Virus record (IMG/VR): IMGVR_UViG_3300031994_000596
Location: 1-20,087 of that record
DNA length: 20,087 nt
Origin: a virus
Reading direction: 5' to 3' (one strand)
The translations under genes and the position numbers were made by a program. Under the pieces are notes generated by a model that was given only the letters and a program-made list of their open reading frames with translations, had not been told where the DNA came from and did not search any database. Shown one piece after another: positions 17,244 to 18,195 of this stretch (positions are counted from its first letter, which is position 1; each line of letters begins with the position of its first letter).

Positions 17244-17282
17244 AAAAAAAGAGGGAGCGGAGAATGTTCATCCGCTCCCTCT
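17244..17282 (-). terminator. Rho-independent terminator of the minus-strand small-gene operon (hairpin may also stop + strand fibre transcripts)
   Basis: A 12-bp stem, AGAGGGAGCGGA (17250-17261) with TCCGCTCCCTCT (17271-17282), and a 9-nt loop. On the minus strand it is followed by TTTTTTT (17250-17244). The + strand orientation has no U tract. Confidence 0.8.
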
Positions 17283-17287
17283 GGGAA

Positions 17288-17301
17288 CCAAACACAGGAG
17301 A
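17288..17301. repeat. Inverted repeat, left arm (CCAAACACAGGAGA)
   Basis: Exact reverse complement of 17679-17692. The match does not extend on either side. Confidence 0.9.
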
Positions 17302-17354
17302 GTTTCGCCGAATTTACGGAGTTTGTCACACGCTGTTGCCAGCGCGGGAGGCGA

Positions 17355-17525
17355 TCAACACACCTCACTGAAGTCGAATTCGGGTACTGCAGCCTTCAGG
17401 GTGTCGGTAAAGGTTGACGTGTCTACTATGCCAAGGGAAGCAAGGTTAAAGTCCGGGATGGGAATATCGCGAACAGATGCCAGGCTATCGATGAGTTCAG
17501 CAGTTTTTGCAGTCAGTTCCTTCAT
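17355..17525 (-). CDS. Hypothetical small acidic protein, 56 aa (MKELTAKTAELIDSLASVRDIPIPDFNLASLGIVDTSTFTDTLKAAVPEFDFSEVC)
   Basis: Below the ORF-track cutoff; translated by hand. GGAG lies 5 nt upstream of the ATG at 17525, with a TGA stop at 17357-17355. About 10 acidic versus 4 basic residues. It lies inside the inverted-repeat-bounded segment. Confidence 0.5.
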   Translation of the reverse strand: MKELTAKTAELIDSLASVRDIPIPDFNLASLGIVDTSTFTDTLKAAVPEFDFSEVC

Positions 17526-17692
17526 ACCGCTCCGACTTGTTACAACGCCATCAGGCGTGGCATGGTCATTTCTGCCATGCTCTTGCTGTCGCCAGCAAGT
17601 CCAGACTGTGCCTTCACCCGTTGCCGGGGCTCCGTGTCCAGTCGTTACACCTTCCAGAAAGGGCTTGGCTCGGCGTTGTCTCCTGTGTTTGG
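17526..17692 (-). ncRNA. Candidate structured RNA leader between the RHH gene and the 56-aa ORF
   Basis: Features on the minus-strand RNA:
- 8-bp long-range helix ACAACGCC (17679-17672) with GGCGUUGU (17549-17542)
- competing local hairpin ACGCC-UGAU-GGCGU (17558-17545)
- 7-bp hairpin with GCGA loop (17599-17582)
- 6-bp hairpin (17580-17560)
- 4-bp hairpin with GCAA loop (17628-17617)
- enclosing 5-bp GACUG/CAGUC stem (17643-17639 with 17608-17604)
I recognised no known RNA family. Confidence 0.3.
17679..17692. repeat. Inverted repeat, right arm (TCTCCTGTGTTTGG on +)
   Basis: Exact reverse complement of 17288-17301. It starts 8 nt after the RHH stop codon on the minus strand. Confidence 0.9.
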
Positions 17693-17699
17693 GATCCTT

Positions 17700-17900
17700 T
17701 TACAGGTTCCGCTTTGATTCCATGTCGGCCCGGATCAGCTGCTTCAGGTATCCCTGCTTATTCGGCTGCTGATCCATCCAGTCGATCAGATCCTGCTCCG
17801 TGCGCTGGTTGAGCGTGAAGCGGATCTGACGGATGTTTTCCTTGATGTACTGCTGGGTATATTGTCCCTGGTTAAATTCCTCTGTGACTTTGAACTTCAT
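17700..17900 (-). CDS. Ribbon-helix-helix (Arc/CopG-like) DNA-binding protein, 66 aa
   Basis: The ATG at 17900 has AGGAGG (17914-17909) 8 nt upstream; the track start at 17954 is less likely. Sequence: MKFKVTEEFNQGQYTQQYIKENIRQIRFTLNQRTEQDLIDWMDQQPNKQGYLKQLIRADMESKRNL. It shows the beta-strand (IRFTLN) plus two-helix pattern common in small Arc-type regulators of Firmicutes phages and plasmids. Confidence 0.7.
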   Translation of the reverse strand: MKFKVTEEFNQGQYTQQYIKENIRQIRFTLNQRTEQDLIDWMDQQPNKQGYLKQLIRADMESKRNL

Positions 17901-17956
17901 GAAAGATACCTCCTTGACGGATGTGGGTGAATTCTGTATGATGAAACCGAGCAAAG

Positions 17957-17979
17957 GGGGGCGGTGGCCAGCCGCCCCC
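17957..17979 (-). terminator. GC-rich intercistronic hairpin (possible attenuator or processing/stability element)
   Basis: GGGGGCGG (17957-17964) pairs with CCGCCCCC (17972-17979) across a 7-nt loop, between the 43-aa ORF stop and the RHH RBS. Only a weak U tract follows on the minus strand (CUUUGCUCGGUUU). Confidence 0.4.
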
Positions 17980-17987
17980 GGAGTACC

Positions 17988-18119
17988 TTAGTCCTGCTTT
18001 GACTTGGCCTTGCTCGGCTTGTAGACGATCCGGATCTCGATGGTCTCAACATCTTCCGGTTCAGCGCCGAGGTGATCGAGGATCTTGTCCTGCAGGGCTT
18101 CTTTGTTTTCCTCGTTCAT
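17988..18119 (-). CDS. Hypothetical small protein, 43 aa (MNEENKEALQDKILDHLGAEPEDVETIEIRIVYKPSKAKSKQD)
   Basis: Below the ORF-track cutoff; translated by hand. AAAGGAAAGGAGGG lies upstream, with GGAGGG 7 nt before the ATG at 18119. An in-frame ATG at 18125 abuts the RBS and is less likely. This is the first gene after the promoter at 18195-18167. Confidence 0.5.
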   Translation of the reverse strand: MNEENKEALQDKILDHLGAEPEDVETIEIRIVYKPSKAKSKQD

Positions 18120-18166
18120 CGGCATCCCTCCTTTCCTTTGTTTTTGTTCCCCCTTGGAACGATTAT

Positions 18167-18195
18167 AGTATAGCGCATTATGTACATAATCTCAA
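18167..18195 (-). promoter_or_regulatory. Sigma70/SigA-type promoter of the small-gene operon: TTGAGA, 17-nt spacer, TATACT
   Basis: On the minus strand the -35 TTGAGA is at 18195-18190, the spacer is 17 nt, and the -10 TATACT is at 18172-18167, immediately overlapped by TATAAT at 18167-18162. It sits just downstream of the recombinase terminator and about 45 nt upstream of the first small ORF. Confidence 0.65.
18177..18190. promoter_or_regulatory. Perfect 14-bp palindrome ATTATGTACATAAT in the promoter spacer (candidate operator)
   Basis: The sequence at 18177-18190 is its own reverse complement and occupies the spacer between the -35 and -10 elements. Confidence 0.55.

Follow-up and report, generated by a model that had tools for sequence, protein, structure and literature searches.

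Does the short minus-strand island between the tail-fibre gene and the recombinase of an uncultivated virus form one operon of small proteins, or does it combine units of different origin? The island lies at 18195-17244 of a 20,087-nt stretch of DNA (IMG/VR record IMGVR_UViG_3300031994_000596, positions 1 to 20,087; hereafter the window). The initial annotation had described it as a promoter-to-terminator operon of three very small genes, with open reading frames (ORFs) of 43, 66 and 56 aa (ORF43, ORF66 and ORF56) around a ribbon-helix-helix (RHH) regulator. Every element listed for that unit was found in its place on the minus strand, but the single three-protein operon did not stand, because the spacer preceding ORF56, ORF56 itself and the 3′ untranslated region (UTR) make up one RNA module that also occurs separately. 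The region is a fusion of two phage accessory modules, each found apart elsewhere: module A (18195-17700), with ORF43 and ORF66, and module B (17692-17244), with ORF56. To the anatomy already noted we added a 14-nt inverted repeat, a predicted plus-strand promoter at 17914-17942 and the membership of the spacer in an RNA family. On balance, and with moderate confidence, we favour the view that module A is a regulator cassette fused to a clamped RNA gene, module B, both transcribed leftwards. More tentatively, 17692-17244 may represent an undescribed class of temperate-phage RNA of ~400 nt with two conserved domains, a variable closing helix and a hypervariable translated mini-ORF, normally an autonomous switch gene and here captured by the RHH cassette. 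The functional roles proposed below are read from comparative sequence analysis.

The separability of the two modules was apparent from their distribution over related loci (cited by L numbers). Module A, complete with promoter, palindrome, ORF43, hairpin and ORF66 and with a terminator right after ORF66, occurs alone in other phages, where it separates HNH/terminase/portal from replication genes and is encoded antisense to its neighbours. The ORF43-ORF66 pair was also found in short contigs and, with its promoter missing, 130 nt past tRNA-Lys(CTT) in a bacterial chromosome (L020 5579-6201; also L019 and L021-L023), and beside a methylase/Z1 island ORF66 is accompanied by what is left of an ORF43 with a broken frame. 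L201 contains the spacer and an ORF56 allele without ORF66, together with their own promoter, TTGACG-17/18-TATGAT, immediately 5′ of the structure. A sister phage, L029, with an identical tail-fibre/recombinase/lysin layout, retains the promoter with its palindrome (ACTATGTACATAGT), an ORF66 homologue and the clamp and 3′ GNRA hairpin of the RNA, and lacks the counterpart of window 17661-17354, which comprises most of the spacer and ORF56. An nhmmer search of other ORF66-family loci detected the RNA in 0 of ~150. When the same trio was sought in other phages, the ORF43-ORF66 pair and the RNA with ORF56 were each found alone. Exact copies of the cassette proteins were present, in constant order, on >30 contigs from rumen and gut metagenomes. 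The chromosomal pair of L020 sits between a glycosidase/TGT cluster and rplM-rpsI and looks like the remnant of a prophage end. In a deletion variant (L012 1-460, L015 and L016) the recombinase gene and ORF43 are gone and ORF66 has lost codons 1-21; its 3′ half persists, together with the RNA and ORF56, at 99.5% identity, and a small membrane-protein gene lies next to them.

Comparison of the RNA versions indicates that the spacer, ORF56 and the 3′ UTR are one RNA gene. The structured spacer, put at 175 nt by the initial annotation, measured 174 nt (17699-17526). A perfect 14-nt inverted repeat, 17692-17679 (CCAAACACAGGAGA) and 17301-17288 (UCUCCUGUGUUUGG), brackets the spacer and ORF56; its halves pair as the 5′ and 3′ arms of a closing helix with three compensated pairs. 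Enclosed by this clamp are a 5′ domain of ~140 nt (17677-17530), with near-invariant junctions and five hairpins including a GNRA hairpin and the conserved loop CAGAAAUGA, and a 3′ domain of ~65 nt (17366-17302), consisting of a GAGGUG...CGCCUC hairpin, the GNRA hairpin CGCGCUG-GCAA-CAGCGUG and then ACUCCGUAAAUUCGGCGAAAC. The module ends, as had been noted, in a strong intrinsic terminator (17282-17244), in which a 12-bp stem with a 9-nt loop (17282-17250) is followed by U7; this inverted repeat is part of the minimum-free-energy fold, and among relatives its sequence differs and the hairpin is kept.

The fold of the 467-nt RNA extending from the ORF66 stop codon to the terminator had a z score of -4.59, with 0 of 100 shuffled sequences being as good. 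Covariation was tested with a hand-drawn 57-pair structure on nine aligned versions, in which 98.1% of the cells were paired and 12 pairs were double-compensated, compared to 3.3 ± 1.3 in shuffles (0/500) and ≤2 in slid controls; three of the 12 belonged to the closing helix and four to the 3′ GNRA hairpin. RNAalifold analysis of the 5′ domain (alignment A3, 28 sequences) showed compensatory changes in 16 of 36 predicted pairs, and the 3′ domain (alignment A6, 22 sequences) showed them in 7 of 15 pairs with one U.G pair invariant. The invariance of G.U and U.G pairs points to the minus strand as the RNA strand. The 5′ domain of the window matched positions 1-147 of the family profile (nhmmer E = 4e-39) and carries the family signature AACGCCGAGCCAAG ... 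GUAACGACUGGACACGGAGC ... GAAGGCACAGUCUG ... CAGAAAUGA ... GUAACA; the family 3′ domain (GAGGUG hairpin, GNRA hairpin and ACUCCGUAAAUUCGGCG), the closing helix and an in-frame ORF between the domains are likewise present. In about a dozen distinct versions the closing helix, 9-28 bp long and of unrelated sequence each time, directly adjoins the conserved ends; in the other versions it is 7 bp or displaced, which does not exceed the mismatched-partner control (mean 6.8). Junctions as invariant as these would point to some conserved partner, for example the ribosome, an RNase or a ligand. A hypervariable ORF held within conserved clamp domains is an unusual design for an RNA.

Two gapped patterns, the first derived from two invariant stretches, retrieved 40 and 42 IMG/VR contigs and together at least 21 distinct versions of the RNA. 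Most copies are closely preceded by -10/-35 elements and closely followed by a terminator. Where a contig gave sufficient flanking sequence, the usual neighbours were CI, Cro-like, Ant or integrase genes. CI-type repressors (HTH_3 + Peptidase_S24) are encoded near the RNA in 22 loci, Cro-like helix-turn-helix genes on the strand opposite the RNA in 19 and Ant/BRO-N antirepressors nearby in 8, and tyrosine or serine integrases lie downstream. Palindromic CI/Cro-type operators flank the RNA in L207 (~4786-4805 and 5038-5057) and L211 (13557-13574 and 13797-13841); these operators (TTGTTCA-N6-TGAACAA; ACTTTG-N6-CAAAGT) occupy the cro-CI intergenic region and the position just 3′ of the RNA terminator, and in L207 the 3′ end of the RNA seems to be overlapped by an opposite-strand cro-like ORF. 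The module B RNA, found in temperate phages whose hosts are Firmicutes of gut and rumen, resembles RNAIII, SR1, ROOL, GOLLD and lambda OOP in being a large multi-hairpin RNA with GNRA loops, long-range closure and a short ORF, convergent with a switch gene. Compared with ROOL and GOLLD it is much smaller, and none of these families holds a hypervariable ORF between two conserved domains. Absent from Rfam and carried by 42 IMG/VR phage contigs, it provides a handle on the control or exploitation of lysogeny by uncultivated gut and rumen temperate phages.

Database searches returned no described relative of this RNA. Rfam 15 (4,227 models) gave no match to the window at the gathering thresholds and nothing credible at E ≤ 10, and four other members of the RNA family had no match at E ≤ 1 except a chance 18-nt transfer-messenger RNA (tmRNA) fragment elsewhere. 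The cassette and a typical RNA copy had no blastn match among 50,697 GenBank phage records; an exact 18-mer scan of metagenomes produced 7 matches, all unrelated and due to chance, and a viral 19-mer scan produced 0. Text searches with core sequences of the RNA gave nothing relevant in the literature that could be reached. Identity with tmRNA was rejected: ARAGORN was negative for tmRNA and for tRNA in the window and in five RNA-bearing loci, and no T-arm or CCA end was visible. A miniature inverted-repeat transposable element or attachment-site origin of the module was also rejected, flanking direct repeats being present in few loci (26-28 nt, L211) and not general. In the phage group of L211 the RNA lies between perfect 26-nt direct repeats (L211 12875-12900 and 13530-13555), and a third copy, 28 nt long, lies further upstream. 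The prophage contig L241 has the 5′ domain of the RNA twice (3-58 and 1538-1686), at a distance of 1.6 kb.

ORF56 (17525-17355), the fast-evolving mini-ORF within the RNA, was located where the initial annotation had placed it, with a GGAG motif 4 nt ahead. It is a near-orphan, with 2 clusters among 5.8 billion proteins, and is nearly invariant among near-relatives (an alignment of 16 sequences) save two contigs, which carry a diverged 54-aa allele. In-frame indels set the alleles (L003 and L201) apart, and ORF56 alleles are moderately constrained. Across the family the embedded ORF varies from 42 to 120 codons and the position of its stop codon drifts, and 15 of 17 distinct modules keep the frame reading GAG-GUG open over ≥80% of the variable region, compared to 0 and 3 for the other frames. 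The ratio of nonsynonymous to synonymous substitution rates (dN/dS) was 0.27-0.74, below 1 in 20/20 comparisons. A small ORF plus a spacer can be a single RNA gene, which annotation by ORFs only or by guilt by association would misfile.

Module A begins with the strong promoter of the initial annotation, TTGAGA-17-TATACT, which we recovered as the best promoter-like site of the region (18195-18167, minus strand, 10/12 matches; 5 such sites were seen versus 1.7 expected). Its -35 element, TTGAGA (18195-18190), and its -10 element, TATACT (18172-18167), are separated by a 17-nt spacer, and the promoter is kept as TTGACA-17-TATACT/TATATT/TATAAT in L001, L011, L193, L197, L245 and L029. The palindrome noticed at this promoter is a perfect 14-bp sequence, ATTATGTACATAAT (18190-18177), within the promoter spacer. 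In relatives it is 14-16 bp long and reads CATTATGTACATAATG (L193, L197 and L245) or, in L029, the sequence given above, the symmetry being preserved by paired changes. This persistence of symmetry through paired base changes fits autoregulation, and the palindrome is a probable operator for an ORF66 dimer. In the 5′ UTR of ORF43, a 10-nt indel (18140-18149) follows directly upon a GTTCC-AAGG-GGAAC hairpin; the window, L002, L014 and L017 have the stretch, and L001, L006, L007 and L011 lack it.

The GC-rich hairpin reported between ORF43 and ORF66 was found at 17979-17956 (minus strand, GGGGGCGG / CCGCCCCC), with counterparts at the matching position in L193, L020, L245 and L029; it could serve as a partial terminator or a processing site and could form the 5′ end of a predicted antisense RNA. 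The promoter of this RNA, TTGACG-17-TATGAT (17942-17914 region, read on the plus strand from 17914 to 17942, 10/12 matches), points toward the hairpin and the ORF43 3′ end, and a transcript beginning at ~17949 would traverse the hairpin and reach the 3′ end of ORF43. In five lineages its hexamers and their 17-18-nt spacing are kept and the spacer sequence is wholly different: TTGACG-17-TATGAT in the window, TTGACG-18-TATCAT in L193/L197, TTGACT-17-TACAAT in L020, TTGACA-18-TAAGAT in L029 and TTGACG-17-TAAGAT in L245. The hexamers are still kept in L029, where the antisense -35 element lies inside a coding region and not over a ribosome-binding site. As hexamers and spacing persist while the spacer diverges, even in L029, we read the pattern as the footprint of a functional convergent promoter. 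In addition, CCGAGCAAGG in the last codons of ORF43 complements CCUUUGCUCGG just past the GC hairpin (17999-18025 and 17951-17961, minus strand), and their pairing would lengthen the hairpin into a structure over the ORF43 stop codon.

Both protein genes of module A are confirmed at the positions first proposed, and both are under purifying selection in codon-level tests. ORF43 (18119-17988, minus strand), small and acidic with a basic tail, is preceded by the ribosome-binding site AAGGAGGG. An in-frame upstream ATG would extend it to 45 aa; this ATG is out of frame in L193, and the 43-aa start is therefore the conserved one. Between lineages its dN/dS is 0.20-0.37, and it is a near-orphan with 3 representative clusters among 1.84 billion proteins. 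At every examined locus that reaches downstream, it is followed by a 64-66-aa gene of ORF66-family size (membership was checked for most). L029 has two other genes in its place, one for a polybasic/hydrophobic peptide of 38 aa (basic N-terminus and transmembrane helix) and the other a membrane ORF of 54 aa. We regard the gene that precedes the regulator as exchangeable cargo, most likely encoding a protein of phage-host or phage-phage conflict.

ORF66 (17900-17700, minus strand), preceded by AAGGAGG, is more strongly conserved, with 14 of 17 variable sites at codon position 3 among the near-relatives and a dN/dS of 0.01-0.18 between more distant lineages. AlphaFold with a 50-sequence alignment predicted a strand-helix-helix topology with an additional N-terminal helix (pLDDT 84.9; helix 3-22, extended 23-35, helices 36-44 and 48-64); with a shallower alignment it returned one long helix. 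On the former model ORF66 is plausibly an RHH protein and is treated here as an RHH-like predicted DNA-binding regulator. The family is large, with 72 genome loci, >137 IMG/VR loci and, by profile search, >5,314 proteins; the PHROG matches of ORF66 are two families, both of unknown function. Many homologues are fused to an MntA nucleotidyltransferase. Family neighbours are very diverse, the directly upstream same-strand ORF is mostly unique and small, and tyrosine integrases recur nearby. An ORF of ~366 aa resembling a reverse transcriptase lies near 7 ORF66-family loci (neighbourhood cluster 24), for example at L155 4164-5264.

In the mechanism we propose, the strong promoter would drive ORF43 and then ORF66, an RHH dimer of ORF66 would bind the spacer palindrome and repress its own operon, and the antisense RNA made by the convergent promoter across the GC hairpin and the ORF43 3′ end would tune ORF43 apart from ORF66. 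The regulator would stay constant and the upstream cargo gene would be swapped. In module B, the 5′ and 3′ domains are clamped by the long closing helix and enclose the fast-evolving mini-ORF, which would be translated. In most phages the RNA has a promoter and a terminator to itself and is placed in the lysis-lysogeny switch, co-oriented with CI/integrase and convergent with cro or ant. The window lineage has no strong promoter of its own for the RNA, which would probably be made by read-through from the ORF66 operon and be set free at the closing helix, a structure similar to an RNase III processing stalk. We suspect, as a best guess, that clamp and 5′ domain jointly control how stable the message of a conflict-related small protein is and how well it is translated. 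Such gating would recall 5′-3′-locked type I toxin mRNAs or dual-function RNAs, from which module B differs in its deeply conserved junctions and its hypervariable ORF; the RNA could be a translation-gated switch or a display scaffold for a fast-diversifying immunity peptide.

The architecture of module A is closest to two known systems, the P22 immI region and the operons of the RHH protein Aca14. In P22 immI (arc, sar antisense RNA and ant, with Mnt), an RHH autorepressor, an operator palindrome within a strong promoter, and an intercistronic convergent antisense promoter occupy a late-gene site by the tail-spike gene. Module A is alike in its putative RHH gene, promoter palindrome, predicted convergent antisense promoter and place by the tail fibre. 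However, its gene order is reversed, with the small ORF first and the RHH gene second; the window contains no Ant-like antirepressor; the predicted antisense RNA meets the 3′ end of the upstream ORF and not a ribosome-binding site; and ORF66 has no sequence similarity to Arc.

Several observations weigh against this two-module mechanism. The RHH assignment, made by the initial annotation and plausible from the AlphaFold topology, found no counterpart in known folds: Pfam RHH families matched neither ORF66 nor 35 diverse relatives, a PDB sequence search with ORF66 gave no match, hhalign against CopG and Arc returned probabilities of 0.1-0.2%, and Foldseek with the ORF66 model gave nothing in the PDB and, in BFVD, matches to uncharacterised phage proteins only. 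The antisense promoter, for which consensus and conservation speak, is absent in L024. The supposed read-through has a competitor in a candidate weak promoter, TGGAAT-15-TAAAAG, just 5′ of the clamp, and exactly that stretch is kept in the L012 deletion. Release of the RNA at the closing helix, probably by RNase III, is pure conjecture. ORF56-type ORFs mostly have no good Shine-Dalgarno sequence and their start position varies, part of the conservation of the C-terminal peptide is forced by the hairpins of the RNA 3′ domain, and most ORFs of the family are polar, unlike classical type I toxins. Owing to the weak Shine-Dalgarno sequences, the shifting starts and the RNA-imposed C-terminal motif, the ORF56 peptide could be a by-product.

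Some of these points favour the first of the alternatives, in which the RNA itself is the effector of the lysogeny switch (by antisense pairing, as a decoy or sponge, or in the manner of a ribozyme) and ORF56 is a translated spacer whose ribosomes remodel the 3′ domain. Junctions that are invariant around a hypervariable ORF, C-terminal motifs dictated by RNA hairpins ahead of a drifting stop and poor start signals all agree with such a role, as do the convergence on cro/ant, including the overlap of the 3′ end with the cro-like ORF in L207, and an ACGCC element able to pair with two alternative partners. Against it, dN/dS is below 1 in all 20 comparisons, amino-acid similarity between alleles is recognisable outside the RNA-constrained part, and the window has no opposing cro/ant, its convergent tail-fibre gene not overlapping the RNA. 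We regard this possibility as doubtful, although it deserves to be kept in mind.

A second alternative keeps the initial proposal of one anti-CRISPR (acr)/anti-CRISPR-associated (aca)-like operon, in which ORF43 and ORF56 inhibit host defence and ORF66 is an Aca-type autorepressor. The part of that proposal that holds is the layout of module A, with an inverted repeat in a strong promoter and a conserved small regulator downstream of a small gene that is exchanged in L029 and is mostly unique across the ORF66 family. An RHH-type Aca is known: Aca14 (WP_005725436.1), whose promoter is overlapped by an inverted repeat (PMC13551039). By layout, its acr-aca operons resemble module A, whose regulator is a putative RHH protein, in having the regulator last in a short operon, a promoter inverted repeat and variable small genes upstream (PMC13551039). 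Module A differs from them in having no known acr or anti-defence match and in its predicted internal antisense promoter, and the ORF66 family also supplies antitoxin domains. The part that fails is the link to defence. None of the three products, ORF43, ORF66 and ORF56, matched a model in Pfam, NCBIfam or PADLOC or any Acr, defence or anti-defence model searched, and ORF43 and ORF56 had no annotated homologues in general libraries, none of them Acr-specific, so that no product is tied to anti-CRISPR or anti-defence activity. ORF56 is part of a separate RNA module usually located at the CI/Cro switch, the L029 cargo consists of hydrophobic peptides unlike known Acrs, and relatives of ORF66 are also antitoxin domains, so that association points several ways. 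On this evidence an acr-aca operon is unlikely. As an RHH-type regulator with a palindrome and an internal antisense promoter over exchangeable cargo, module A nevertheless widens the search image beyond helix-turn-helix Aca loci.

An unlikely option of similar weight is a toxin-antitoxin, addiction or abortive-infection system, in which a toxin encoded upstream of ORF66 is curbed by the antisense RNA (type I logic) and by RHH autorepression (type II logic) and the clamped RNA is a second, locked toxin mRNA. The predicted convergent antisense promoter over the 3′ end of a small ORF recalls bsrG/SR4 or txpA/RatA, and the 38-aa peptide of L029, with its basic N-terminus and transmembrane helix, occupies the ORF43 position. 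The clamp between 5′ and 3′ ends, the long structured 5′ UTR and the weak ribosome-binding sites are hallmarks of the hok, AapA1 and zorO mRNAs, and prophage location and a small ORF are further features shared with the type I loci (bsrG/SR4 and txpA/RatA, and, in mRNA locking, hok/sok and aapA1/IsoA1). Many MntA-type antitoxins encoded directly upstream of DUF86/HepT have an N-terminal domain homologous to that of ORF66; in 16 ORF66-family loci, where the domain is fused to MntA, the DUF86/HepT toxin gene lies directly downstream. Unlike these proteins, ORF66 of the window is a stand-alone domain with no nucleotidyltransferase or HepT gene. Moreover, ORF43 and ORF56 are polar and acidic and not membrane peptides, family searches of the window turned up no gene of a toxin family, an antisense promoter opposing ORF56 was not identified, and the near-invariant RNA junctions, conserved across phages far beyond toxin leaders, are untypical of type I toxin leaders.

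The idea that the cassette serves the adjacent Xer-like recombinase, with ORF66 as an excisionase or directionality factor and the 14-bp repeats bounding an invertible segment, is very improbable and largely refuted: the recombinase does lie directly upstream in the window lineage and L029, a separate serine integrase beside CI leaves it needing another job, perfect 14-bp repeats around a 377-bp segment would be expected by chance ~0.08 times in 6.6 kb (an estimate) and tyrosine integrases recur near ORF66-family genes, but all ~20 lineage contigs show one orientation, the helix occurs with other sequence in RNA copies far from such recombinases and tolerates strand-specific G.U pairs, which argues that it acts at the RNA level, module A also occurs without the recombinase, and no repeats join the tail-fibre gene and the cassette.

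Other identities were rejected as well. A shufflon or inverton is not compatible with the single orientation in all ~20 contigs, the Xer-like type of the recombinase and the lack of repeats linking the fibre gene. An integron was dismissed since the TIGR02249 score was 82 bits versus a cut-off of 265 and the recombinase matches Xer-like proteins best. For a diversity-generating retroelement or retron, no reverse transcriptase was called in the 20-kb loci L001 and L011, the upstream structural ORFs of the window not having been individually scanned, and no template/variable repeat pair was present in window 13500-20087.

The flanks of the fused regulator cassette and RNA gene are as first noted. 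On the left, a 955-aa tail-fibre ORF on the plus strand converges on the cassette and ends at 17192, with no overlap with the RNA. Upstream on the minus strand lies the Xer-like tyrosine recombinase (19297-18284; Pfam Phage_integrase, 3e-36), which has its own terminator (18271-18245) and scored 196 bits with NCBIfam XerA, under the 220-bit cut-off. It adjoins the cassette in the window lineage and L029 and is not beside it in L197 and L019-L025; L193 has a tyrosine integrase on the opposite strand, at a distance of ~2 kb. The phage encodes a second recombinase, a large serine integrase beside a CI-like repressor (L001 5002-6570; L011 4562-6247). The minus-strand island 17244-19297 is antisense to the late operon, between the tail-fibre and lysis genes (plus-strand genes restart at ~19520), and late transcription must cross it head-on or restart beyond it.

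The lower and more mixed GC content attributed to the cassette was not borne out: its GC of 0.50-0.54 equals that of the backbone, and the low values belong to the distal 2.4 kb of the tail-fibre gene (14800-17200; 0.35-0.40 compared to 0.50-0.55 around it). In related phages the same slot holds tail fibres of 715-1237 aa. This GC drop, together with the range of fibre lengths, suggests that the receptor-binding part of the tail fibre was horizontally acquired.

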